Shown in pieces: positions 3,948 through 58,376 of a stretch of DNA of 64,000 nt; position 1 is the stretch's first letter; the number at the start of each line of letters is the position of its first letter. The DNA comes from Candidatus Micrarchaeota archaeon (GTDB lineage Archaea > Micrarchaeota > Micrarchaeia > Anstonellales > Anstonellaceae). Location of the stretch: NCBI GenBank assembly GCA_964650545.1, contig CAZYTZ010000001.1, positions 23,686-87,685 of the forward strand, in the 5' to 3' direction. The position numbers were made by a program, and so were the translations under genes. The notes under the pieces were generated by a model. It searched no databases. It was not told where the DNA came from and saw only the letters and a list, made by a program, of their open reading frames with translations.

Positions 3948-5111
3948 ATGAGAAAAGTTGCAATTGTTGGAGTCGGAATGAGCAAGTTTGGCGAGGAGTG
4001 GACCCGCGGCTTTCGCGACATGCTGATTGACGCTGGTGGCAAGGCTGTTGAGGATGCCAAGCTCTCAGGAAGCGAGATTGATGCCATGTATGTTGGTACC
4101 ATGGCCCCCGGCTCGCTTGTGGGCCAGGAGCACATTGGCGCTTTAGTGGCTGACTACATGGGCCTCACGCCAGTGCCTTCCACGCGCGTGGAGGCTGCCT
4201 GCGCATCAGGTGGCGTGGCGCTGCGCCAGGGTTACATGGCAATTGCATCTGGCATACACGACTGCGTTGTTGTGGGCGGCGTGGAGAAGATGACTGACAC
4301 GCCGGGCAATGAAGTCGCCTCAGCGCTGGGCGGCGCAGGCGACCAGGAGTGGGAGCTTTTCATGGGTGCCACTTTTCCAGCAATCTACGCGTTCATGGCA
4401 AGGAGGCACATGAAGGAGTATGGCACCACTGAAGAGCAGATGGCGTCAGTGGCCGTGAAGAACCATGCCAATGCCGCGAAAAACAAGTATGCGCACTTCC
4501 AAAAAGAAATAACGATTGAAACCGTGCTGAAAAGCAAGCAAGTGGCATCCCCTCTCAAGCTTTTCGACTGCGCGCCCATCACTGATGGCGCCGCAGTGGT
4601 TGTTCTCATGCCTCTGGACAGGGCGAAAAAGCACTGCGAAAAACCCATTGAAATAACCGCATCAGCGCAGGCATCAGACTACCTGGCACTCCACTCTCGC
4701 GCCTCCATGACCGAGCTTAATGCCACCAAGGTGGCTGTGAAAAAGGCATATGGGCAGGCAAACGTGTCTGTAAAGGACATTGACGTAGTGGAGGTTCACG
4801 ACTGCTTCACCATTGCCGAGATAATGGCAATTGAGGACCTTGGTTTTTTCCCCAAGGGAAAAGGCGGCCAAGCTTCACTTGAGGGCAAGACTGCGCTTAA
4901 CTCAGAAATATCAGTGAACACTTCAGGCGGCTTGAAAGGCTGCGGCCACCCAGTGGGTGCCACAGGAATAAAGCAGGCTGTTGAAGTGGTGTGGCAGCTT
5001 CGCGGCGAGGCAGGAGCGCGTCAAGTGAAAGACGCCAAGGTGGGGATGACTCACAACGTGGGCGGCTCAGGCGCAACTGCCGTCGTGCACATAATGAAAA
5101 AATCAGAATGA
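3948..5111 (+). CDS. Acetyl-CoA C-acetyltransferase (thiolase).
   Basis: MRKVAIVGVGMSKFGE... has the thiolase active-site Cys region and a C-terminal GHPVGATG motif. It follows the HMGCS stop codon directly. Confidence 0.9.
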   Translation: MRKVAIVGVGMSKFGEEWTRGFRDMLIDAGGKAVEDAKLSGSEIDAMYVGTMAPGSLVGQEHIGALVADYMGLTPVPSTRVEAACASGGVALRQGYMAIASGIHDCVVVGGVEKMTDTPGNEVASALGGAGDQEWELFMGATFPAIYAFMARRHMKEYGTTEEQMASVAVKNHANAAKNKYAHFQKEITIETVLKSKQVASPLKLFDCAPITDGAAVVVLMPLDRAKKHCEKPIEITASAQASDYLALHSRASMTELNATKVAVKKAYGQANVSVKDIDVVEVHDCFTIAEIMAIEDLGFFPKGKGGQASLEGKTALNSEISVNTSGGLKGCGHPVGATGIKQAVEVVWQLRGEAGARQVKDAKVGMTHNVGGSGATAVVHIMKKSE

Positions 5112-5181
5112 TTTTTTCAGCTGTCGAACTCGCTTTGGCGAGTTCAACATAATGAAAAATGACGTTTAGAGGTAGATACCT

Positions 5182-5589
5182 ATGCCATCTGAAAACCTTG
5201 CAATAACATGGAGGCGCATACCAGAGCGCTACAGGCTGTCTGGAAGCGCGTGCGAGACTTGCAAAACCAACTATTTCCCCACGCGCAAGCTCTGCCCAAA
5301 ATGCCGTCGCAAGGGAAAAATCGTGATGAAGCAGTTTTCAGGCAAGGGCAAAGTCTACTCATTCACCGGGGTGACCTCCGGGCCGCCTGGCTTTGAGCTG
5401 GAAGCGCCATACGTGCTTGCCATAATTGAGCTTGAGGAAGGGCCGCGCCTCACCGCGCAGGTGGTGGGCGTGAAGGGACAGGACGTAAGCATAGGCGCGC
5501 ATGTTGAGATGATTTTCCGCAAGATACTGGAGGATTCGCCAGAAGGGCTCCTCCACTATGGCTACAAGTTCAGGCTCCTTAAGAAATGA
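5182..5589 (+). CDS. DUF35 OB-fold/zinc-ribbon protein, the scaffold partner of the HMGCS/thiolase complex.
   Basis: It has a C-x2-C...C-x2-C zinc ribbon (CETCKTNYFPTRKLCPKCRRKG) and an OB-fold-like C-terminus. An SD-like agaggtag precedes the start, and its position after the thiolase gene is conserved. Confidence 0.85.
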   Translation: MPSENLAITWRRIPERYRLSGSACETCKTNYFPTRKLCPKCRRKGKIVMKQFSGKGKVYSFTGVTSGPPGFELEAPYVLAIIELEEGPRLTAQVVGVKGQDVSIGAHVEMIFRKILEDSPEGLLHYGYKFRLLKK

Positions 5590-5646
5590 GCAAACACTGA
5601 CTGGGCGTCCGAAAGCTTTATATCTTTATTTCAAAATAATAGCTTC

Positions 5647-6177
5647 ATGTTCAAAAAATTGAATTTGTTTTCAAGAACAGAAATGAAAGTGCTATCGTTC
5701 ATCTCGAGGAAAGATGGCGAGCTTTACGAGCGGCAAATTGCAGATGGCGCAAAGGTGAGCGTTGGGTCGGCGAATTCAATACTCCGGGAATTCGCTGCAA
5801 TAGGGCTGATTTTGCAGGAAAGGAAGGGAAAAATGCTTTTTTACCAGAGGAACGACAGCAACCCGCTCCTGCGGCAATTCAAGGTCTTCTCAACAGTGAA
5901 TGAGCTAATGCCCTTTGTCGGCACCATCATGCCCCTTTGCAGCCGCATTGTCCTTTTTGGCAGCTGCGCGGAAGGCAGGAACGGGGAAGGAAGTGACATT
6001 GACCTTCTTATACTGGCACAGGAAAAGGAAAAGGTCAGGCGGCTGTCAGCGGAAAACCCACACATCCAGGCAATACTTCTAAGCCCTGCTGAGTATTCTC
6101 AGCTGGAAAGGAAGGACAAGCCCCTTTTCAGCCGGATAAGGACTGGGATAGAGATTTATGGTGGTGACAATGGATAG
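5647..6177 (+). CDS. Minimal nucleotidyltransferase (MNT) domain protein with an N-terminal winged helix.
   Basis: It carries the GS-x9-SDIDLLIL nucleotidyltransferase motif (LFGSCAEGRNGEGSDIDLLIL). It overlaps the downstream HEPN gene by 20 nt. Confidence 0.7.
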   Translation: MFKKLNLFSRTEMKVLSFISRKDGELYERQIADGAKVSVGSANSILREFAAIGLILQERKGKMLFYQRNDSNPLLRQFKVFSTVNELMPFVGTIMPLCSRIVLFGSCAEGRNGEGSDIDLLILAQEKEKVRRLSAENPHIQAILLSPAEYSQLERKDKPLFSRIRTGIEIYGGDNG

Positions 6178-6598
6178 CCGGTTTAGCCGTTGCCTGAAGG
6201 AAGGGAAGCTTGTGAAGATTGGCGTGCAGCCAGACTTGGCCAAAAAGGAGGCTGACGCGGCGGCATACGACCTTCAAAGCGCCGAGAAGTCGCTTGAGGA
6301 AGGCAACCCGAAATGGGCAACTGTCCAGGCATACTATTCCATGTTCCACACTGCAAAGGCGCTTGCCTTCCATAAGGGATACCGTGAAAAAAGCCACGCC
6401 TGCCTCTCAATAGCCCTAAAAGCCCTTTTTGTGGATGCCAACGAAATGGAAGCAGGGCAATTCGAGCATTTCAGGGACTGCATGGCGCTGCGCAAAGACG
6501 CGGACTACGGGCTTATCTATTCGGACAAGTCAGCCGAGGAAGTAGTCAGGTGGGCGCGCGAATTTTTGGCTGCTGCGGGCAAAATCCTGCCCAAATAG
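6158..6598 (+). CDS. HEPN domain protein, partner of the upstream MNT.
   Basis: The helical HEPN fold pattern (AKKEADAAAYDLQSAEKSLEEGNPKWATVQAYYSMFHTAKALAFHKGYREKSH) and overlap with the MNT gene fit a classical HEPN-MNT toxin-antitoxin arrangement. Confidence 0.7.
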   Translation: MVVTMDSRFSRCLKEGKLVKIGVQPDLAKKEADAAAYDLQSAEKSLEEGNPKWATVQAYYSMFHTAKALAFHKGYREKSHACLSIALKALFVDANEMEAGQFEHFRDCMALRKDADYGLIYSDKSAEEVVRWAREFLAAAGKILPK

Positions 6599-6605
6599 CC
6601 TGTCT

Positions 6606-6935
6606 TCAGATGAATTTCACGCCGCAGGCAGGGCAGGACACCATGTAGTAGTTCGCCACATAGCCGCACATCGGGCAGCGGTACTGCTGCTGGCTGGGCG
6701 GCGCGCGCTGCTCCACCAGGGAATGGCCGCAGTTCGAGCACTTTTCCGCTTTCAAGTCGTTTGCAGTATCGCATTTCGGGCACTTAATCCTGAACATGGA
6801 CTCAACATGCGTGCCGCACGACGGGCAGCGCTCCATGCCAAGCACCAAGTCAGCCTTGCATTTGGGGCACTTTGCCTTCATCTTCGCGTGCGGCTTGGGG
6901 CGAAGCGCATCTGATATCAAGTCGAGCATTCCCAT
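6606..6935 (-). CDS. Multi-zinc-ribbon protein with five CxxC pairs.
   Basis: It has CPKCKADL, CPSCG, CPKCD, CSNCG, CPMCG and CPACG repeats. The start is placed at ATG 6933-6935, which is 27 nt downstream of a minus-strand TTTTTATAG element, suggesting a leaderless mRNA. The ORF-track GTG at 6956 would leave no room for a promoter. Confidence 0.5.
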   Translation of the reverse strand: MGMLDLISDALRPKPHAKMKAKCPKCKADLVLGMERCPSCGTHVESMFRIKCPKCDTANDLKAEKCSNCGHSLVEQRAPPSQQQYRCPMCGYVANYYMVSCPACGVKFI

Positions 6936-6957
6936 AAGAAAAGTTCCGATGCGCACC

Positions 6958-6966
6958 TATAAAAAG
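6958..6966. promoter_or_regulatory. AT-rich TATA-like element (ctataaaaag). It could serve the minus-strand zinc-ribbon gene and possibly the plus-strand tRNA-Ala transcript.
   Basis: This is the only AT-rich octamer in the 6936-7067 intergenic region. It lies about 27 nt from the zinc-ribbon ATG and about 100 nt upstream of tRNA-Ala, with two hairpins (7017-7038 and 7044-7059) in between. Confidence 0.3.
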
Positions 6967-7067
6967 CCTTCACGTCTGAATGGGGAAGGCAAAATCCTCT
7001 GGGATTTTGCCATCTTCGTCGTGCCCGCAGGCACGACGTCTACCGAAAACCTGCGGGTTTTCGCTAT

Positions 7068-7259
7068 GGGCCCGTGGCGCAGTGGTAGCGCGCCTGCTTT
7101 GCAGAACCCTTTTGCTCGCTCCAGATGGGGACGCTCGCAAAAGCGTTCACGGAAAACGCAAATGGGTTTCAAAAAAGCAGGAGGCCGGGGGTTCGAAGGA
7201 CCTTTTTCGGGATGCCTAAAAAGCTCCGCCAAAAAGGGCTGAAATTCCCCCCGGGTCCA
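7068..7259 (+). tRNA. tRNA-Ala (anticodon UGC) with two introns: one in the anticodon loop (about 7104-7175, after position 37) and one in the T-loop (about 7198-7245, between positions 59 and 60).
   Basis: Manual fold. The acceptor GGGCCCG pairs with CGGGTCC, giving the G3:U70 alanine identity pair, and the discriminator is A73. The D-arm is GCGC-AGTGGTA-GCGC. The anticodon stem is CCTGC/GCAGG with loop TTTGCA...A. The T-arm is GGGGG-TTCGAA[intron]T-CCCCC. CCA is not encoded, and a T-run follows. Confidence 0.65.
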
Positions 7260-7273
7260 TTTTTTCTTTTTGC

Positions 7274-10200
7274 TTAGAAGTTCAAGCCAAATTTCAGGTA
7301 GAAGAGGAAGTCATTCTTGTCCCTGAAGCCTTCGTATCTGAAGCCCGCTCCCCCATAGCCGGTCGTGCCCATAAAGCGCCCCGTTTTCATGTACTCCAGC
7401 TCAATGTTCTTCTTGATTATGTCCTTATAGAACTGGGTGCCAAGGCCAAGGGCTATGCGGTTGGAGCCGAAATATCCCACTCCCTTCATCCCCACGTTTG
7501 TGAAGCCGTCGGAAAAGTCCCTGATGGAGCCCACGCGCGTCAGGTTGACGATGTATGTGACTTTTTTGCCAGCATGGGTGAACTGGAGCTTGTAAAAATC
7601 ATCAAGTGTGCTTGCCGAAGCCTCTATGACGTTGTTCTTTATTCCGATGCCGGCCTCAACGATGTACTTGTCCCGGCGCAAAGGCTCTTTCGTTTCCTGG
7701 GCAATGGCTGTTGGGTAATCCGGGATGGTCTTAAGAACGTCCTTCTCGGGCATGCCCCTGTCCAGCATTTCCTGCGCCGCAGCATCCTTTGATATGCGGG
7801 TGGCGATGATGACTGCCTTGAAGTTTGCGTTTTTGCTTTTGTACACGCCGCCCAATGTCTGGATTTTGCCTGGCGATTCCGCGCTGGTCATGGCGACTAT
7901 GCCCCACCTATTGTTGAAATCAAGGAAAGTGGAGACCATGGGGCCGGGAACGCCCATCTGCTTGCCGCTTGTAATGCTCACCACGCCGCCAAACGTCTTG
8001 TAGGTCCCGTCATCCTGCGGTGTCTGTCGCGTGAAGGTCAGCGATATGTCTGAAATGTCGGTTCCATAGCGCTTGAATATCGAGCTGTAGTCTGCACTGT
8101 TGAAGAGATTATTCATCGTCTTGCACATTCTGTCGCTCGCAGCATTCAGCTCCTGCTCCGTATGGTATGGGTTGTCCAGCACAGCCTGGTATTCCTCATA
8201 TGCTGAGCTGAGCACGGATATGTCCGTGTAAAGATACCCCCCCAAAAGCTCCTTGTCCTCGTTCGTCGGAGGGTTGTACCAGTTCATGGAAAGGTTAAAG
8301 CCGTATTCCACGCCCTTTTTGCTTTCGCCCTCAATCTTAATCGCGCCCTTGTATGATGTCCTGGTGCTGTTCGGGTAGTCATTGTACTGGAGCACATATT
8401 TCATGGGTATGCTCTGGAACTCGCCTTCAGTTCCGACCGTGGCGGAATTTATGGAGGTTTTTTTGGAGCCGTCAGGAAGTTCCTCGTCAGCCCAGCTGAA
8501 ATAGCCATAGTTCCTCAAAAGCGAGCCCGTGCCCTTCCCGTCCTTCGAATAGCTTTTGGACTGGTATGCCGTCCTGCCGCCTGCAAATCCACGGTCAGAG
8601 CCGGCGAACGAAAGGTTGAAGAGCGCTCCATCAAAGCTTTCGTGGCTATAGCCAACCGCGCCCACTCTCCCCAAGCTCTCAATTTTCCTGTAGCTGTCAA
8701 GCCTTGCCTGGCCATAATTGCTTCCAATGTAAAAGCCAGACGATGTCGGAAGGTCCTGTATTGTTCTTGCATCAAGCTCGTAGTAGCTTGCCCAGAAGGT
8801 GTGCTTGTGGTAGCCTTCCGGCTTGCCATCATACCCATCTCCGCGGGCAATGATGCCTGCAGCCGATTCCTTGTCAACCGTCATGCCCCCGACAGCTGCC
8901 ATGTCTAGCCTCTTGCCAAGCTCTTCGCTTCCCATGCCTATGAAAAATCCGACGTCGGTCGCCTGGCGCTCCTTCTGGTTGAGCACCCGCGCCTGCACAT
9001 AGCCAATGCCCTGCGCCTCCTTGTAGCCTATCACTCCTGCCCCCGCGCAATAATTCTGGACAAACTCGGAATTCCTGATGCCTTCCAGCTGCTGCCCAAG
9101 GTACTTTGTGATGTCGTTGCGGTATTCGTCGTTGAAATAAAATTCGACCCAGTTGCTGCCAGCAATTCTGTAGTAGACATGCGCCTCGTCGTAATACCAT
9201 TCGTTTTTGGACTGCGTCCCTGTGGCCTGGTGCACCTCAAGGGAGTAGTGCGGCTTTTGATTGGCATCCAAAACGGTCTTTTTTGACACCACATATATCT
9301 TCCCGTCAATTTCCTGCGAGCCAATGACGCCATCCTGCTTGTCCTTATTGCTGCTCAGAGTATCTGAGGTTATCTGAAGCTGCGAGGCAAGGCTGCTGTA
9401 ATTGGAATCTGAAATGCCGTTTTCGTCAAAGGTGAACAGCAGGGTGCTTGAGGACTCAGAGATGTTGTCTGCGCTGAAATAATGGCGGTTGAAGCGCGCA
9501 AGGAGCCGCGAGTTCTCGCCTGAAGCATTAAGCGTCTGGCTTATGTCCTGGGAAACAGTCTTTGTCTTATGCCCGAAAACAAGGTCAGGTTCAACATCTT
9601 TTCTGACGTAAGCCGACCCGTACGCGTCATCAATTATCATCCTGTCAAGGAACCCATCCTTTACCAGCTTGAAGTTTTTTGCCTGGTCGAGGAAGCTGAA
9701 CGTGTCTGACTGAGTGGTGTCTGTAATTTCCCTGTAATAAACGCCTCTTGCGTCAAGCAGCCCGCCCCTGTCTGTTTTCCCCAAAGCGCCCCCTCCACCG
9801 CCGGAGGTGGTGCTCCTCTCGGTCATCCCTCCTGCCGCAGCCAAGTACCCTGTCCCGCTCCTGTCAAAAAGTGCGGGGGATGTGCCTTGCGAGATGATTC
9901 TCCTGAATATCCTGTCAAGCTCAGCAGAGGCGCTGACTATGTCGAGGGAATATTCCGTAGATGCGCCCCTAAGGAAAATGTCCCTCAGGTACACCCCTGC
10001 CCAGCTCTTTTTCATGAAAACAGCCGATTGGGACTTCAGAACCTGCGCTTGCGACGGAATGTAGCTGTCGTTCCAAAGGTCATAGGGGCTTCTTGGGACC
10101 TCAATCGGCGTCCATTGGCCAAACCTGTGCTGCGGCAGCTGGTCGGTAAGGAGCCTGGTGGCATCGGTAAGGACCGACCTTTCGTATTCGCCGGTTATCA

Positions 10201-12147: not shown

Positions 12148-14571
12148 CTACAATTGGCTTATCTCATAATGATTAATGGCCTTATTCGCAAGGTCGCCTA
12201 CTTCGGAAATACCCGCGAGGATCTCGATTATTCTAGAGTCTGTTGTCGTGCTTGCCCAATTCACAAACTCCCTCATTATTGCGTCTGTAGCGGCTTGGTC
12301 TATCTGCGTATCCCCTAGCTTTCCCTTTAGCAGCGCAGCATTGATTTCCTGCCTGTTTTTCGTGATGAATCCACTCAGGCGGGACATGCTCACTGGAAGC
12401 GCAGATTCGCCCCATCCCGCCTGCTCGCTTTCCTTCAGCCCCGCAATCCCGGCCGCCAGCTGCGCGGCGCCAAGCCTGCCCTTGGCCAATTTATCATCCA
12501 ATACCAGCCCCTCAAGATGGGAAGTGAGCCTTTCAGCCCCCACCCCCTCCAGCGCGGCTCGCACTGCCGTTTCATTCCCCAATGTCACAAGCCATTGCGG
12601 CAGGGCGACTGCTCGCGTCAGGTCAACGTCTCCAAATGCCGTGGCTGTTACCGCAACATCCTCAGTTATAGTGGTTTCCAGCTGGCTGGCGGTTTTCTCT
12701 TGCTGGCCCGTTGCCGCATTGTAGCCATTTATCGCAGATAGCACTTTTTGCCTGTCAAGGTTTAAGGTGCCATCCTCGCTTCTCAGGCCCGCCCTGTAGC
12801 TGCCATCCTCTTCCTTGAGGCTCGCCACGAGGCCGTCGAACAGCGAGTTTTCAGCCTCGGTGTCTATCTTTCCGTTCTTGTCAGTGTCGCACTTGGCAAG
12901 GATTGCCTGGTAAATGCCGGATGCCGCCCAGCCGCCTTCTGCCACCGCAGGGTCAAGCGCAATGAGCGCTGCAACGCTGTCAAGCTTTGGAACCCTGGCG
13001 GGCTTGGCATTCTCGCCTGCAATGAATGCAAACAAGTCTGCTGCCTGCCCGAGCTTTTCCTTCCCATTGAAGTAATTCAGCATTGCCTCGTTATTCTGCT
13101 CGTTTTCGAATATGATTGTTGCCCGCTTGCCCTTGGCCTCTGAGATTGCGCCAAGCTTCAAAAGGTCGGCTTTGAGCTCATGCATGATAAGCCTCTGCAC
13201 CCCCTCGTCATCCAGCACGCCCTCCTGCCCCTTCCCAAGCGCCGCCACGATTGCTTTGCGGTCAAAGTGGAGGTTTGACACACCTGCCTTGTCTGCAATC
13301 CCCTTGTCCAGAGCGTAAAAGCTGCTGCCTATCTTCTTCACAGTCCCGGTCTCGCCGCCGTTTTCCTTCACTTTCTTCCTGGCATCCCTCTCCACCACAA
13401 TGCCGAGCTCCGCCAGCCTGCCAAGCGCGCTCTTGTCAGTGATGCTCCCAACAAGCTTGCCATCATCATCCAGCGTGCCCGTGATTTTCGTTATCCTGCT
13501 GCAAATGGCCAAGGTTTCCCGGCTAACAGGCACTTTAACGGTCGATTCCCCGGCTTCCTTGACGAAAGCACCCTCTGCCTCCTGCACCGAGTACAGGCCC
13601 TCATCGTTCTTTTCCAAAGCCATTGCGCTGCCATCAAGAACCAGCTTCACGCGCCAGTCCTGCTGGTACACATTCACATCAGTGTAAGCGTCAAGCGCGC
13701 CCGGAGTCTCGGCCACATCCTCTGGCAATTCCACCTCGCCAGGCCTTTTCATTGCCTCCTCGTCCTCAACTTGTGCTTTGTCCCCAACTATTTTCTGGAA
13801 GTTTCTTTGCCAGAAGCTGTCTTTCCTCATGCTGTCAAGCGCAAGCAGGGCATTTTTCACAGCCACTTTCCTGTCCTGCCCATCCTCTGCTTTTGGCAGC
13901 TTGTTGAAGTCCTTGTTGGTCTCCTTGCTGTTCCTGCCGCACAGCATGGTGAAGTATGCGTCAAACAGCTTGCGCTCGTTTGCGCTCATCTCAGTCGCCT
14001 TCCAGTCAAACTCCTGCTCCAGCCAGCCGCGCCTTACCATGTAATCAACAGTGGCTGATACGTTCTTGTCTATCCTCTCCTTTGTAAGCGTTAGGAAGGC
14101 GAACTTGCTGTTTATCTCATCAGCCATGCCATACGCATGACCAAGGAGCTTGTTCTCTGCAGCGGAGGCCTCAGGGACAGGAGCATTCTTGACGCCTGGC
14201 TCTGCGCCGTATTTCAGATAAGAGGAAATCGCATCTATGGCATCAGCGCAATCCTTAGCGTCATTCTCTTTTCCGAGCTCAGCATAGAGCTTTTTTGCAG
14301 CCAAATAGTTCCGGTATGCCAGCTGGTAATTCCCGCCTTCTTCCTTGTCATAGTGGTTTATTGTCAGGTTCCAATGCGCGTCCGCCATTATCACTTTGGC
14401 GTCATCTCTCTGGAGGGTGGTCGCATTCGGCGCCCTCAGGGCTTCATTGCATTTTGATATGGCAAGCCTGTACTCTTCCACAGTGGCGTCTGGCTTGTTT
14501 TTTAGACCTTCTGCGTCGGCCAACAGGCCTGCAACATCAACAGCCTGTGTCGTCTGGGTGACCATTGCCAT
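12148..14571 (-). CDS. Large hypothetical protein (807 aa), predicted mostly alpha-helical, containing an EF-hand-like loop (DTDKNGKIDTEAE).
   Basis: It has an ATG start and sits 8 nt upstream of the 1621-aa gene. No catalytic motifs were recognised. Confidence 0.65.
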   Translation of the reverse strand: MAMVTQTTQAVDVAGLLADAEGLKNKPDATVEEYRLAISKCNEALRAPNATTLQRDDAKVIMADAHWNLTINHYDKEEGGNYQLAYRNYLAAKKLYAELGKENDAKDCADAIDAISSYLKYGAEPGVKNAPVPEASAAENKLLGHAYGMADEINSKFAFLTLTKERIDKNVSATVDYMVRRGWLEQEFDWKATEMSANERKLFDAYFTMLCGRNSKETNKDFNKLPKAEDGQDRKVAVKNALLALDSMRKDSFWQRNFQKIVGDKAQVEDEEAMKRPGEVELPEDVAETPGALDAYTDVNVYQQDWRVKLVLDGSAMALEKNDEGLYSVQEAEGAFVKEAGESTVKVPVSRETLAICSRITKITGTLDDDGKLVGSITDKSALGRLAELGIVVERDARKKVKENGGETGTVKKIGSSFYALDKGIADKAGVSNLHFDRKAIVAALGKGQEGVLDDEGVQRLIMHELKADLLKLGAISEAKGKRATIIFENEQNNEAMLNYFNGKEKLGQAADLFAFIAGENAKPARVPKLDSVAALIALDPAVAEGGWAASGIYQAILAKCDTDKNGKIDTEAENSLFDGLVASLKEEDGSYRAGLRSEDGTLNLDRQKVLSAINGYNAATGQQEKTASQLETTITEDVAVTATAFGDVDLTRAVALPQWLVTLGNETAVRAALEGVGAERLTSHLEGLVLDDKLAKGRLGAAQLAAGIAGLKESEQAGWGESALPVSMSRLSGFITKNRQEINAALLKGKLGDTQIDQAATDAIMREFVNWASTTTDSRIIEILAGISEVGDLANKAINHYEISQL

Positions 14572-23685: not shown

Positions 23686-23781
23686 CTTTCCCTTCTTATT
23701 CTTTTTCTTCTCTTACCCTACAGGTATCGCCATATCATTCGAGCCTGCTGGCTTGAATACTAAAAATTCCTGGGAATTTTC

Positions 23782-54604: not shown

Positions 54605-54731
54605 CGCCTCGGACAGGACTTGAACCTGTGACCTATGGATCGCTGCCGCGCACGTGCGCGATAACAGTCCATCGCTCTACCTTTCAGTCTCACGAGGACC
54701 GTCCCTCATGAAAAGACTGAGCTACCGAGGC
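54605..54731 (-). tRNA. tRNA-Asn (anticodon GUU) with two introns: about 34 nt in the D-loop (plus-strand 54682-54715) and about 21 nt in the anticodon loop (plus-strand 54642-54662).
   Basis: Manual fold of the reverse complement. The acceptor is GCCTCGG/CCGAGGC with discriminator G73. The D-stem is GCTC/GAGC with loop AGT[intron]GGTA. The anticodon stem is ATGGA/TCCAT with loop CTGTTA[intron]. The T-arm is ACAGG-TTCAAGT-CCTGT. Both introns contain self-complementary segments (AGTCT...AGACT, CGCGCAC/GTGCGCG). Confidence 0.65.
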
Positions 54732-54759: not shown

Positions 54760-55110
54760 CGATCTTCGTTGGGCGTTGCCCAACGTCTCGCAGTTTTCGC
54801 TTCGCGAAAACTACGATGCCACTGGCCAGCAAACAACCCGAAGTTCAATTCATTTTTCCCTTCGGGGTTCGTGCCATAACGTTTCCAGACCACTTTTGAC
54901 CTATACTGTCTTTTATCTGAAACCATGCCTGTGGCTTCCCCCTTTTGCTGCGATGGTTATTAAAAACTGCGGTTTTCGCCCTGGCAGGTTATTTTGTTGA
55001 AAAATGGCACGGAGCCGTACTTTCCTGCTGCACGAAGATTCCTATTGCAGCTTCACGCAACTTAACTTAGATTAAGCAAATCCCGATTCTGCTTAATCAG
55101 GCTGCAACGC
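54760..55110. ncRNA. Candidate structured noncoding RNA or long tRNA-Asn leader; identity unknown.
   Basis: It spans about 350 nt without a credible ORF. It contains several perfect hairpins (CGTTGGGC-GTT-GCCCAACG, TTTTCGC-TTC-GCGAAAA, CCC-TTCG-GGG, GATTAAGCA...TGCTTAATC) and a long-range complement (CGTGCCAT / ATGGCACG). Confidence 0.2.
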
Positions 55111-55155
55111 AACCATTATAAATTATACATATCAAAAGTATCGTTAAGCGATACT

Positions 55156-55968
55156 ATGAAGATACAGAAATCGATGCGTTTCGGCGAGCAGGAGGTAAAA
55201 CTGCTCTTCGCGCTTGAACAGGGAAAGAGCCCCGTTTTCACGATAGCGCAAGCGCGCAAGGCGCTTGGGACGACTGACGCCTCGGTCAAGAACGTCCTTT
55301 CACGCCTGAAGAGGAAGAAGCGCGTCATTCCTTTGCAGCGTGGGGTTTACCTGTTTGCGCCCCTCAAAAGCGGGCAGGAAGGGCAATGGACTGAAAATGC
55401 TTTTTCTGTTGTGCCTTACCTCGCTGGAACTGGCAAATATTATATCGGATTTGCCGCTGCGATGAACTATTGGGGCATGACAGAGCAGCTGCCCCTGACA
55501 GTGGGCATTGCGATGGAGAGGCAAAAAAAGCCCGTAAGCGCAGTACAGTCGAAATTTGTATTCGTGGCAAAAAAGCGCCTCGGGGATTATGAAAAAATCT
55601 CCATAGCGGGCACGAATGTCAACATCTCTTCGGTTGAGCAGACTGTGCTTGATGCGCTGGCTTTCCCCGAATACTGCAACGGGATTGAGGGGGCGGCCAA
55701 GGCGGTTTGGAGCGCAAGAAATAGCATTGACTGGAAGAAGCTCTCTTTGCTTGCGAAGGCAGGGAAAGGCGCGGTGCGGCAAAGGCTGGGCTATCTGCTC
55801 GAATTGCTGGGGCTGGAAAAGCGCGCAAAAGCAATTGAGGGCAAGTTTGCCGGCTTTTCCTGGCTTGCCCCCAATGCCCAAAAAGCGGAATTCCAATACT
55901 CGAAGAGGTGGGGCTTAAAGATTAACCTGAAAAAAGAGGATGTGCTTGAATTCCAGAGGGGATACTGA
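55156..55968 (+). CDS. AbiEi-family antitoxin-like wHTH protein.
   Basis: The N-terminal pattern LSRLKRKKRVIPLQRGVYLFAP matches the AbiEi N-domain. It lies immediately upstream of the AbiEii gene and overlaps its start. Confidence 0.55.
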   Translation: MKIQKSMRFGEQEVKLLFALEQGKSPVFTIAQARKALGTTDASVKNVLSRLKRKKRVIPLQRGVYLFAPLKSGQEGQWTENAFSVVPYLAGTGKYYIGFAAAMNYWGMTEQLPLTVGIAMERQKKPVSAVQSKFVFVAKKRLGDYEKISIAGTNVNISSVEQTVLDALAFPEYCNGIEGAAKAVWSARNSIDWKKLSLLAKAGKGAVRQRLGYLLELLGLEKRAKAIEGKFAGFSWLAPNAQKAEFQYSKRWGLKINLKKEDVLEFQRGY

Positions 55969-56726
55969 TGGATTTGACTGAATTGAGGAAAAGGGCGATG
56001 AAGGAAGGCATACCTCTGGCAATAATGGAGAAGGATTACGCGCTTTCCGTTGTGCTTCTTGAATTGTCAAAGACTGCCCTGAAGGGCAATTCCTTGTTCA
56101 AGGGTGGCACGGCAATAAAGAAAGTCTATTTTCCAAATGCAAGGTTTTCCGAAGATTTGGATTTCACTGCGCCGAATATGAAACAGGATGAAATAACGCA
56201 CGCGCTGAAAACCATGCTTGAAAACAAGGAGATTCTTGGCATCCGGTTTGGCACCCTTGAGCACGAGAAGACGGGCGCAGGGCTTCGGCTGTCAGTCAAA
56301 TTCTCAGGGTTCCTTGAGCAGCCACAGAGGATACGCTTTGACTTCAGCTTCAGGGAAAATGCAGTCTTGCCGCCTGTTGAAAAAGAAGTGATTGACAGCT
56401 ATTCGCTTGGCAAGGCAGGCATACGGACCTTGCAGGTGGAAGAATTGCTTGCCGAGAAAATCCAGGCGGCATTTTCGCGCACGGTTGCAAGGGACCTGTA
56501 CGACATTTGGTTCCTGCTGAACAACGGCGTCAAATTGGATGTCGCGCTTATCCGCAGGAAATTCGCGTATTACAACGAAAAATACGAACCGGAAAAGCTG
56601 GAAGGCAGGCTCAATGGCTTCAAGCTGAAATGGAATCAGGATTTGGGGCAGTTCCTGAAAGAGGTGCCTGCATTCGAAATGGTCGGAGCGGACGTGCTGA
56701 AGCAACTTTTAGGGCAAAGAGGATGA
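55968..56726 (+). CDS. AbiEii/AbiGii-family nucleotidyltransferase toxin (DUF1814).
   Basis: It has LFKGGTAIKKVYFPNARFSEDLDF, the canonical GGTAL...RFSEDLDF motif. Confidence 0.65.
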   Translation: MDLTELRKRAMKEGIPLAIMEKDYALSVVLLELSKTALKGNSLFKGGTAIKKVYFPNARFSEDLDFTAPNMKQDEITHALKTMLENKEILGIRFGTLEHEKTGAGLRLSVKFSGFLEQPQRIRFDFSFRENAVLPPVEKEVIDSYSLGKAGIRTLQVEELLAEKIQAAFSRTVARDLYDIWFLLNNGVKLDVALIRRKFAYYNEKYEPEKLEGRLNGFKLKWNQDLGQFLKEVPAFEMVGADVLKQLLGQRG

Positions 56727-56730
56727 GAAT

Positions 56731-57231
56731 TTGAACGGAACTTCGCTGAAACTGACGATAGAACTCGTGCCGTCCACCTCCTGGTGGAAAAGCCTCAGGG
56801 CAAAGATGCCAAAGGATGAATGGGATGCGATTAGAAAAAGCGCATACGCAAGGTTTGGATACCGGTGCGCGATCTGCAATTCAAAGGGCAGGATGCACTG
56901 CCACGGGGTTTGGGAATTCGATGATGCAAGGCACGTCCAGAAATTGAAGGATTTCATTGCGCTCTGCGAGATGTGCCATTATGTCAAGCACATCGGCCTT
57001 GCAAGTGTCAAGGCGTCGGAAGGGGAGTTGGATTACAACGAGGTTGTAAAGCACTTTTTGAAGGTGAATGGCTGCGACATGCGGGCTTTTGAAAAGCACA
57101 AGGATGCTGCATTTTCCAGATGGCAGGAGCGCTCCAGTCATGAATGGAGAGTGGATGCGAGTGTGTATGAAAAGCTGCGAAGCGCGATGCTTGATAAAAA
57201 GCAGCACAGGCTGTTTGAGGAGAGCTTATGA
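56731..57231 (+). CDS. Cys/His-rich HNH-like nuclease-fold protein (166 aa).
   Basis: It has CAICNSKGRMHCHGVWEFDD...CEMCHYVKH, a CxxC...HxH...CxxCH pattern. It starts with TTG, and its stop overlaps the next gene's ATG. Confidence 0.4.
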   Translation: MNGTSLKLTIELVPSTSWWKSLRAKMPKDEWDAIRKSAYARFGYRCAICNSKGRMHCHGVWEFDDARHVQKLKDFIALCEMCHYVKHIGLASVKASEGELDYNEVVKHFLKVNGCDMRAFEKHKDAAFSRWQERSSHEWRVDASVYEKLRSAMLDKKQHRLFEESL

Positions 57232-58217
57232 AGAAGCTGGAGGGGATGACGCGCGAGGATGTGCGAAAGCTTGTCGACTACAAGATATTCGAGCGCGGAG
57301 TCGAGTACTTTGCAGAAGGGCATGTGATTGAGCCATCTGTTTCCGGCAATAAAATCATGGCTGAGGTTGAGGGTTCGTCATACCAGAATTACAGGACTTC
57401 TGTTGAACTCGCCAATGGGCAACTGGAATGCAAATGCGACTGCCCGTATGATTGGGGAACCTGCAAGCACGTGATTGCGCTGCTTCTTCATTGGGTAAAG
57501 GAAAAGGATGATTTTGAAGACCTTGGCCACGTTGCCGAGAAGATGGAAAAGATGCCGCGCGAGGATTTGCTGAAGATTCTGAGGCGCTTTGCCAAGGATG
57601 AGCCGCAAAGATTCGTCGAAATTGTTGATTTGGCGCTGGTGGGCGAAATAGCTGACGAAACAAAGGCACTGGACTTCGTCACGAAGGCTAAGAATATCCT
57701 TAGAAATGGCGATGACCGCAGAATTTCCGATGTTGTGAGGAGAGTGATCATCATTCATGAGCAAGCCCTTGGTCGCTTTAAGAGCGATGGAGCGAACTAT
57801 GCTGCTGGCCAGCTGTTCAGAATCGCTTGCGCCTTTCTTGACGCACCTTGGGTTTGCGAGGATTCGAAAGGCGAGGGCATCGGGCTGGTTTCGGAATTGC
57901 TTGACGATGTGCGGTTGATATGGATGAACCACAAAATTTCTAAGAAGGTGAAGAAGGAAATCCTGGATGAGACCTGGAAAATAATAAATGCCGACACAAC
58001 GCTCTTGACCGATTCTTTTGACGACTTTTTCGAAAGCACATGCAAGGGCGAATGGGAACGGAAAATCATGCGAAAGCCAATAATCCAGCGATTGGTTCGG
58101 CTAGAAGAACTTGAAAATAGGGGGCGGCAGTACAAGTCGTATAGGTATGAGCAAACGCTTCACTTTGCACGGAAGTTCGGTTACATCAGCCAAAAGGGAG
58201 TTTACATCCAAGATTAA
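57228..58217 (+). CDS. SWIM zinc-finger domain protein (329 aa).
   Basis: It has the CxCx(n)CxH SWIM signature (CKCDCPYDWGTCKHVIALLL). Confidence 0.55.
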   Translation: MKKLEGMTREDVRKLVDYKIFERGVEYFAEGHVIEPSVSGNKIMAEVEGSSYQNYRTSVELANGQLECKCDCPYDWGTCKHVIALLLHWVKEKDDFEDLGHVAEKMEKMPREDLLKILRRFAKDEPQRFVEIVDLALVGEIADETKALDFVTKAKNILRNGDDRRISDVVRRVIIIHEQALGRFKSDGANYAAGQLFRIACAFLDAPWVCEDSKGEGIGLVSELLDDVRLIWMNHKISKKVKKEILDETWKIINADTTLLTDSFDDFFESTCKGEWERKIMRKPIIQRLVRLEELENRGRQYKSYRYEQTLHFARKFGYISQKGVYIQD

Positions 58218-58301
58218 TGCCTCAAGCCCCTCTGAAATCCATCATGTGTGCTTTTTATCGCCTTTCATTTCTTAATGTGGTATTAAATGTATACTCGTGA
58301 A

Positions 58302-58376
58302 TGCCACTGGCCGGATTTGAACCAGCAACACATCGGTCTTCAGCCGATTGCTCTCCCAGGTTGAGCTACAGTGGCG
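58302..58376 (-). tRNA. tRNA-Phe (anticodon GAA), without introns.
   Basis: Manual fold of the reverse complement. The acceptor is GCCACTG/CAGTGGC with discriminator A73. The D-arm is GCTC-AACCTGGGA-GAGC. The anticodon stem is ATCGG/CCGAT with loop CTGAAGA. The T-arm is GCTGG-TTCAAAT-CCGGC. Confidence 0.85.

Follow-up and report, generated by a model that had tools for sequence, protein, structure and literature searches.

A compact, integrase-less element in the tRNA-Phe gene of a Micrarchaeota archaeon carries an AbiE pair in one operon with HNH and SWIM genes

The 64,000-nucleotide stretch analysed here (positions 23,686 to 87,685 of contig CAZYTZ010000001.1, assembly GCA_964650545.1, from a Candidatus Micrarchaeota archaeon; hereafter the window) carries an inserted element of 3,485 bp (54828–58312) located in the 3'-terminal part of a tRNA-Phe gene. 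This element harbours four genes, g1 to g4, encoding an AbiEi-type antitoxin, an AbiEii-type nucleotidyltransferase, an HNH-type endonuclease and a SWIM zinc finger protein. With moderate confidence, we interpret it as an integrative element that is non-autonomous and whose operon combines addiction and defence functions. An earlier note, made by reading the sequence, had described an accessory islet, possibly acquired horizontally, at 55156–58217; all four open reading frames (ORFs) are indeed present there on the + strand, and the loosely drawn islet can now be replaced by a defined object with exact borders, an attachment (att) site, empty sites and sister copies.

Insertion site and borders

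The element is flanked by two exact copies of a 12-mer, ATGCCACTGGCC, which corresponds to the final 11 nt of tRNA-Phe plus one base. The proximal att copy (58301–58312, + strand) covers the last 11 nt of tRNA-Phe(GAA), the integration target, an intron-less gene on the - strand (58302–58375) detected by both ARAGORN and Rfam (64.1 bits). The distal att copy (54816–54827, + strand) is a duplication of this tRNA 3' end. The 12-mer has only these two exact matches in the window, both at the borders, so that the search for direct repeats of tRNA 3' ends advised by the earlier note turned out positive.

To collect relatives of the locus, metagenome contigs were queried with Trm1, the protein encoded nearby, and 43 loci were retrieved; loci of other genomes in general are designated below by L numbers. 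The order EPSP synthase, Trm1, tRNA-Phe, gap, tRNA-Asn, a gene for a protein of 106 amino acids (aa; p106), a 153-aa gene (p153) and enolase is conserved, and the linkage between Trm1 and tRNA-Phe is kept in relatives. At least 10 syntenic relatives, whose Trm1 is 70–84% identical, are devoid of g1–g4. The gap between tRNA-Phe and tRNA-Asn measures 3,604 bp in the window, 100–170 bp in L017, L020, L023 and L049, and ~900 bp in L013, L014, L021 and L022, where it is filled by a single 257–271-aa gene. L013 provides the best full-length Trm1 match (84%), yet lacks the element. When L017 is aligned to the window, the match of its empty site ends at 54827 and resumes at 58296; this alignment, together with the paired 12-nt repeats, delimits the inserted element as 54828–58312. 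Border direct repeats of the tRNA end and empty sites in relatives, the two features that characterize tRNA-integrating elements, are thus both found. Furthermore, the accessory nature proposed by the earlier note and the horizontal acquisition with which it found the position consistent are borne out, since the four genes, far from occurring in all relatives, are missing from at least 10 syntenic ones.

The sequences of the two expected junctions can be given: the empty site would read ...GAAAACTACG-ATGCCACTGGCC-GGATTTGAACC, and the junction of an excised circle would read ...GTATACTCGTGA-ATGCCACTGGCC-AGCAAACAACCCGAAG, the latter being the same junction as the one given by the tandem array found in L001 (see below).

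The other tRNA gene had been taken as the second boundary of the islet. This part of the earlier description does not hold, unlike the tRNA-Phe border, which stands. Indeed, tRNA-Asn(GUU) (54606–54697, - strand, with a 22-nt intron) sits 458 nt 5' of g1 and 118 nt from the left border of the element (54816/54828), and it is 91–97% identical in syntenic relatives; it is a native chromosomal neighbour lying outside the element. It is detected by Rfam (29.7 bits, cut-off 29) and was not found by ARAGORN with introns allowed.

From left to right, the element consists of a 176-bp block named R, a 152-bp upstream region, the four genes and an 83-bp spacer, the non-coding DNA 5' of g1 therefore reaching ~330 bp. 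Block R (54828–55003), with which the element starts on the left, is conserved and non-coding. It is missing from all empty-site relatives and present in the two loci discussed in the next section, being 92% identical to the window in L086 and ~93% (copy R1) or 80–82% (copy R2) in L001. R is a candidate for recombination or regulatory DNA, and it may be a recombination arm. Two other identities were considered and rejected: a structured RNA (fold z of -0.27 and -0.03 on the two strands) and a coding remnant of a split integrase, as the minus-strand ORF would reach a mere 42 aa or so across the circular junction and loses its ATG in copy R2 of L001, so that it is not conserved. A 17-mer of R gave 58 matches in genome contigs, approximately the number estimated by chance, only one of which (L086) agreed with the window; neither of its two matches in IMG/VR agreed with the window.

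The operon upstream region (55004–55155, + strand), which is 96.7% identical in L086, contains palindromes and a TATA-like box. An inverted-repeat scan revealed GATTAAGCA-N11-TGCTTAATC at 55070–55098 and AGTATCG-N5-CGATACT at 55137–55155, the latter being the only one of the two located in sequence common to the window and L001. The A/T-rich box TTATAAATTATA lies ~30 nt 5' of the g1 ATG. These sequences are a putative operator and promoter. At the other end, the spacer (58218–58300) is 88% identical in L086 and is kept up to the att copy in both L001 and L086.

Sister copies and horizontal spread

The element was found again, at the identical position, in three further genomes: L001 (JGI 3300029959), L086 (Ca. 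Micrarchaeota archaeon LacPavin_0419_WC90_MAG_54_17) and the P0121 contig (ENA). Identity between L001 and the window reaches 93.5% for the cassette, against 74–79% for the flanking core. In L086, the element is 92–98% identical and its genes 95–98%, against 75% for Trm1; this locus has kept the two att copies, at a distance of 3,477 bp, and its tRNA-Phe gene contains an intron. The P0121 contig, in which AbiEii, g3 and SWIM genes adjoin Trm1, is known from its genes and stands outside the comparison of DNA identity. Because the element is far more alike than the core in L001 and L086, recent horizontal spread between related genomes is the likely cause of this distribution: the data indicate that the element passed recently between Micrarchaeota lineages. 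As the copies differ by ~2–8%, versus 20–25% in core genes, it is apparently the short 3.5-kb form itself that moved. The GC content of the element (48.9%) is lower than the mean of the window (52.8%, standard deviation 1.7% for windows of the same size).

The four-gene operon

The four genes lie on the + strand and are tightly packed. g1 (55156–55968, 270 aa) and g2 (55968–56726, 252 aa) have one base in common (TGATG), g2 and g3 (56731–57231, 166 aa, TTG start) are 4 nt apart, and g3 and g4 (57228–58217, 329 aa) overlap by ATGA. This layout is that of one operon. The ratio of nonsynonymous to synonymous substitution rates (dN/dS) ranges from 0.08 to 0.42 (window versus L001 for g1–g4, window versus L086 for g1–g3), with 0.08–0.13 for g1 and 0.26–0.34 for g2. 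Therefore, g1–g4 are real genes that are kept by purifying selection.

The first gene encodes an AbiEi-type antitoxin/repressor with an N-terminal winged helix-turn-helix (wHTH) domain and a C-terminal AbiEi domain. It matches Pfam AbiEi_1 (residues 94–217, 5.8e-11) and AbiEi_4 (residues 17–68, 8.4e-07), both above the cut-off, and the PADLOC AbiEi model (2.5e-56 over residues 10–265); a sequence search of the PDB gave no match. The product of g2 is an AbiEii (DUF1814) nucleotidyltransferase toxin of the polymerase-beta fold, as indicated by its matches to Pfam AbiEii (1e-35, 124 bits for a cut-off of 22.5 bits) and PADLOC AbiEii (3.6e-52). It also matches AbiGII (9hlo, 1.4e-07) and PDB entry 6y56 (7.9e-10), with which the motifs FKGGT, RFSxDLDF and ARDLYD are aligned and conserved. 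This entry is named 'uncharacterized protein' by its depositors and is presumably mycobacterial MenT4. Globally, antitoxin domains, intact toxin motifs and an overlapping bicistron in which the antitoxin comes first are all present, as in AbiE systems, and the overlapping AbiEi/AbiEii pair recognized in the earlier note is confirmed by Pfam and PADLOC as well as by the shared base.

The overlapping pair formed by the last two genes, also seen earlier through the strings CAICNSKGRMHCHGVW...CEMCHYVKH (g3) and CKCDCPYDWGTCKH (g4), both of which are present, likewise holds. g3 matches PHROG 5200 'HNH endonuclease' over its full length (1.8e-39); neither Pfam nor the PADLOC models gave a match. Its homologs number more than 200 (145–170 aa) and share the invariant residues C46, C49, H58, C79, C82, H83, K86 and H87. 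The AlphaFold2 (AF2) model of g3 is confident, with a predicted local distance difference test (pLDDT) score of 89.5, and in an alignment with DotN, histidines kept in g3 are missing from DotN. These features fit the HNH/His-Me finger family and, within it, the subgroup with a Cys4 zinc site. Relatives of g3 are frequent in viruses, with 277 in IMG/VR and 236 in cultured phage genomes, the latter at 44–47% identity and annotated as HNH endonuclease.

The g4 protein comprises a SWIM domain (approximately residues 1–91; Pfam SWIM, 23.9 bits for a cut-off of 19.6 bits) followed by an all-helical repeat domain (approximately residues 150–316; AF2 pLDDT 80). Residues C70, C72, C79 and H81 (CxCxnCxH) are invariant in 11 homologs, and a match to ZSWIM8 was found. 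No enzymatic fold and, in particular, no helicase domain was detected in g4. Two PADLOC assignments were examined and discarded, as neither match is full-length: residues 7–119 of g4 match positions 9–125 only of the 566 positions of PDC-S62, an unvalidated candidate, and only the first ~90 positions of DpdE, a helicase of >1000 aa, are matched. An exhaustive profile search of the g4 clade gave 8,603 representatives at E<=1e-3, typically of ~580 aa, over g4 residues 5–300. The close clade of ~330-aa proteins is rare, with 13 matches in a word-indexed search and about six close cluster representatives, and no relatives of the g4 family were found in IMG/VR.

Recurrence of the module in other genomes

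In all readable neighbourhoods of the g4 clade, an HNH or Cys-rich gene adjoins the SWIM gene (those of L006 and L007 end at the contig edge). A pair of genes encoding a winged-helix protein and a polymerase-beta nucleotidyltransferase is also present in five of the seven contexts, some of which are related and for which no background statistic is available. This pair is of several types: AbiEi_4/AbiEii, AbiEi_2/268 aa, wHTH/DUF6036 and TrmB-like/260 aa. The window, L001, L086 and the P0121 contig have the same type of module. L005 encodes an AbiEi_4 protein (41% to g1), an AbiEii protein (48% to g2), a type-2 HNH with an in-frame stop and a SWIM protein (44% to g4). In L118, a winged-helix protein and a DUF6036 nucleotidyltransferase are found with a Pfam HNH (22.9 bits; 22% to g3) and a SWIM protein. 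L116 has a SWIM gene divergent from a g3 homolog (56%), together with genes for a TrmB-like winged-helix protein and a 260-aa GG...DxD protein. L002–L004 (Micrarchaeota) encode AbiEi_2, a protein of 268 aa with the GG...DxD motif, a Cys-rich protein of 105 aa and a SWIM protein. Finally, L117 has a SWIM gene divergent from a g3 homolog (53%) and no nucleotidyltransferase pair within its 3.4-kb contig. The nucleotidyltransferase of L118 was identified by Pfam DUF6036 and that of L116 by weak matches, the GG...DxD motif of the divergent pairs being read from their sequences; PADLOC does not recognize the wHTH/nucleotidyltransferase pairs of L118, L116 and L002 as AbiE. The recurrence of non-orthologous nucleotidyltransferase pairs beside the same HNH-SWIM core is the pattern that would be expected of functional linkage, and g1–g4 behave as one conserved module rather than as two unrelated pairs. 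In addition, four high-GC viral contigs encode small SWIM proteins (142–191 aa) after g3-family HNH genes; a search of cultured phages with such a small viral SWIM protein gave no match.

Two of these divergent modules are also bounded by copies of a tRNA end. The L005 module is flanked on one side by tRNA-Trp, whose 5' end is at 4200, and on the other by a repeat of 13 nt of this end at 8094–8106, for which our own arithmetic gives a chance expectation of ~0.007. The L116 module, of 3.4 kb, is enclosed by tRNA-Trp, which starts at 4413, and a repeat of 18 nt of the 5' end of this gene at 958–975 (chance expectation ~4e-6). No integrase was found within the L005 or L116 modules, and their non-coding ends have only an 11-mer in common with R. 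Three divergent versions of the module are thus compact (3.4–3.9 kb), integrase-less and bounded by repeats of a tRNA end. In L002, neither a tRNA gene nor convincing border repeats were found. The region 5' of the AbiEi_2 gene there, at 4440–6210, contains a dense array of GTTCAC/GTGAAC inverted repeats and a pseudogene of IS256-like type (Transposase_mut) interrupted by a stop.

Integrases and other elements at the tRNA-Phe site

In L016, a gene encoding a 400-aa tyrosine integrase (12237–13439; Pfam Phage_integrase, 6.4e-17) with a C-terminal zinc ribbon starts 40 nt past tRNA-Phe and is followed by >9 kb of non-syntenic foreign DNA; the far end of this integrase-bearing element lies beyond the locus examined. 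In L001, two extra genes (TrmB-like and a 273-aa ORF) separate R from the cassette. Beyond the cassette come one att copy and the second R block (R2), with which another element begins; this element carries Schlafen/AlbA_2 and MarR-type genes. Such an arrangement is typical of elements accreted in tandem at an att site.

Several other observations were made at this hotspot. The 257–271-aa gene that fills the gap in some relatives (L013 5148–5963, L014 6024–6818, L021 3100–3915, L022 11406–12179) and that also occurs in L086 (5446–6261) is absent from the window and represents a second variable gene of the tRNA-Phe/tRNA-Asn hotspot. Its product has an HTH-like N-terminus and a weak match to Pfam Phage_endo_I, and its YFPDF...IIECTMW motif is suggestive of a PD-(D/E)xK nuclease. 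In L014, a gene for a 779-aa coiled-coil/membrane-type protein (6975–9314) lies between tRNA-Asn and the 106-aa gene. Beyond tRNA-Asn in L086, at the edge of the locus, a region weakly resembling the L016 integrase (7691–7996; 26% over 108 aa) may be a trace of a further element integrated on this side. The target tRNA gene is itself variable: among the genomes compared (window, L013, L016, L017, L020–L025, L049 and L086), most relatives have a 26–42-nt intron in tRNA-Phe, and the intron-less gene of the window is 100% identical to that of L013. Intron presence thus varies within this group of genomes.

Proposed mode of maintenance and transfer

According to the reading that we favour, the 12-bp core carried by the element would recombine site-specifically with the end of the tRNA gene, leaving one copy of the core on each side. 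The integrase of a larger element using the same att site would move the 3.5-kb unit in trans; alternatively, the unit may have been cut down from such an element. Once integrated, the element would be retained by its operon. In AbiE and MenT systems, the nucleotidyltransferase toxin adds nucleotides to tRNA ends and halts translation, and AbiEi both represses the genes and neutralises the toxin; AbiE stabilises plasmids (PMC13064643). By analogy, g1 would repress the operon and neutralise g2, which would modify tRNA acceptor ends and stop translation as soon as the control by AbiEi is lost. g3 probably cuts DNA as an HNH endonuclease of phage type, and g4, which is translationally coupled to g3 and appears non-enzymatic, most likely binds g3 for target recognition or control. 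The four genes would therefore form a combined addiction and anti-invader cassette that retains the element and may guard the cell against viruses and other mobile DNA.

Strength of the proposal and alternative explanations

A number of observations weigh against this proposal. Concerning mobility, no integrase or other recombinase was found among the four genes with Pfam, PADLOC and PHROG, tblastn with the L016 integrase detected no homolog in the window, and R is not present in the L016 locus; because its own integrase gene is missing, the element is not classed as autonomous. Concerning defence, none of the PADLOC defence-system models matches the g3-g4 pair, and the view of the earlier note that HNH+SWIM pairs characterize defence islands is not established. 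The g3 family is mostly solitary in phages, with unrelated neighbours in most viral contigs, and elsewhere it is paired with different genes, Bles03 among them. The neighbours of distant SWIM relatives, which were seen on plasmids and in Paenibacillus, are unrelated and include neither HNH nor nucleotidyltransferase genes, and the set of g4-clade contexts is small. Moreover, the window copy of g3 carries E59G (codon 59, 56905–56907), beside the putative catalytic H58 in the nearly invariant CHE(I/V)W motif; this position is E in L001, L086 and at least 90% of homologs, and the window copy may be weakened by the substitution. In L005, the HNH gene (approximately 6430–6990) has a stop (SEKY*IADH) just 5' of the catalytic His and is called as two ORFs of 66 and 112 aa; owing to this in-frame stop, the nuclease is dispensable at least in that genome.

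Two independent pairs, an AbiE toxin-antitoxin and an HNH-SWIM pair, may instead travel together on mobile DNA without any functional tie, which we regard as possible but rather doubtful. AbiE is a complete two-gene system elsewhere (PMC13064643), the HNH-SWIM pair of L117 is found without a nucleotidyltransferase pair, the viral pairs of HNH and small SWIM genes occur without AbiE, and defence or addiction genes cluster on mobile elements for causes other than a common function. However, the association of the HNH-SWIM core with an adjoining winged-helix/nucleotidyltransferase pair in most contexts involves at least three or four families of such pairs, the genes of the window are packed as one operon, and all four are equally conserved between copies. 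A different view is that the unit is the decayed, immobile remnant of a larger virus or plasmid, whose genes survive since the loss of a toxin-antitoxin is lethal. The lack of an internal integrase agrees with it, as do the gains and losses at the site revealed by the extra genes and the further element of L001, the substitution at a conserved site of the window g3 and the stop codon of the L005 HNH gene. This view is nevertheless unlikely, as a 3.5-kb unit with both att copies is found in two genomes whose divergence in the core greatly exceeds that of the element, and as L005 and L116 also have compact units bounded by tRNA ends, which would imply three independent decays.

The three versions devoid of integrase and transposase, with repeats of 12 nt of the tRNA-Phe 3' end in the window, 13 nt in L005 and 18 nt of the tRNA-Trp 5' end in L116, could also be those of a self-moving module, in which the HNH nuclease, with the SWIM protein as its guide and possibly together with the wHTH/nucleotidyltransferase pair, would cut tRNA ends and insert the DNA without any recombinase. 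HNH nucleases drive the homing of other selfish elements and SWIM domains occur in Mutator-type transposases. We know, however, of no precedent for such an insertion, and this possibility appears remote. Indeed, repeats of unequal length that coincide exactly with tRNA termini resemble the att cores of tyrosine integrases rather than target duplications of fixed length, an integrase-bearing element uses the same site in L016, and the tandem R-sharing elements of L001 fit integrase-mediated accretion; the commonness of the g3 family in phages, in unrelated contexts, and the nonsense codon of the L005 HNH gene argue in the same direction. That the cassette would be a new kind of self-sufficient element, working without tyrosine or serine recombinase, transposase or Cas1, is accordingly very improbable. 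As for ordinary chromosomal genes inherited vertically, purifying selection on all four genes is what they would show too, but this explanation is refuted by the absence of g1–g4 from syntenic relatives, including the one closest by full-length Trm1, by copies that are far more alike than the flanking core genes, by a GC content below the mean of the window and by the direct repeats at the borders. We thus retain the non-autonomous integrative element. The identities and linkage of the genes, their arrangement as an operon, the borders and empty sites of the insertion, its spread and the selection on its genes are observed; the biochemical activities, a complex of g3 with g4, the role in defence and the mobilisation in trans by the integrase of a larger element using the same att site are conjectural.

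Comparison with known elements and systems

AbiE, HNH nucleases, SWIM proteins and tRNA-targeted integration are each already known. Like archaeal integrative elements that target tRNA genes, the element is inserted in a tRNA end, is flanked by a short direct repeat, has empty sites in relatives, shows tandem accretion (L001) and shares its site with an integrase-bearing element of a relative. It differs from them by the lack of integrase, replication and transfer genes and by its small size (3.5 kb), with a single operon as cargo. Integrase-less derivatives are comparable to bacterial cis-mobilisable elements (CIMEs), which are moved in trans.

The g1-g2 pair resembles the AbiE systems of Lactococcus and Streptococcus agalactiae and the mycobacterial MenA-MenT systems: g1 has the two-domain layout of AbiEi, the GG, DxD and RDLYD motifs of DUF1814 nucleotidyltransferases are conserved in g2, the two genes overlap with that of the antitoxin in first place, and the pair is carried on mobile DNA. 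Unlike them, the pair here makes up the leading half of an operon of four genes and is followed by the HNH and SWIM genes, and it resides in a DPANN-type archaeon, where its activity is predicted.

As for g3, the HNH proteins of PHROG 5200, encoded for instance by rV5-like phages of Escherichia, Cronobacter and Klebsiella, have the same Cys4 site, conserved His and HNH-like fold, but g3 differs from them in being translationally coupled to a SWIM gene and linked to AbiE, and in its E59G substitution. In Septu (PtuA-PtuB), retron-associated HNH and Zorya II (ZorE), a small HNH effector likewise adjoins a controlling or targeting partner, and the type-2 HNH of L118 matches the ZorE and PtuB models. 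However, the partner is here a SWIM/helical-repeat protein instead of an ATPase, and PADLOC gives no match to g3; the similarity concerns the logic of the arrangement and does not make g3-g4 a member of these systems. Other arrangements were seen in the g3 family: in L008/L009 (Bathyarchaeia, 6001–6830), the HNH gene overlaps a downstream 142–150-aa gene of unknown function, and in L010–L012 (6001–6958) it overlaps a Bles03-domain gene, the neighbours in L008–L012 being HD, Cas4, CAP12-TIR, NERD and ScoMcrA_N genes. In defence islands, the partner of a g3-family gene thus seems to be exchangeable.

g4 shares with the ~580-aa SWIM family, PDC-S62, the N-terminus of DpdE and ZSWIM8 a SWIM finger located after a small beta-sheet and followed by helices. 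It differs from the ~580-aa family by its short length and the rarity of its clade, and from distant SWIM relatives in that its clade adjoins HNH and nucleotidyltransferase genes.

Significance

Literature searches, whose coverage excluded subscription journals, retrieved no description of the four-gene combination, of its carriage by a 3.5-kb integrase-less element in DPANN-type archaea or of its recurrence at tRNA ends. To our knowledge, the mobile DNA of tiny symbiotic archaea is poorly known. The existence of compact, integrase-less units at tRNA ends in three versions raises the question of how such mini-elements move. Furthermore, if the four genes act together, AbiE-type systems would have an accessory nuclease arm, and a large uncharacterised SWIM family, with thousands of relatives, would gain its first functional context.

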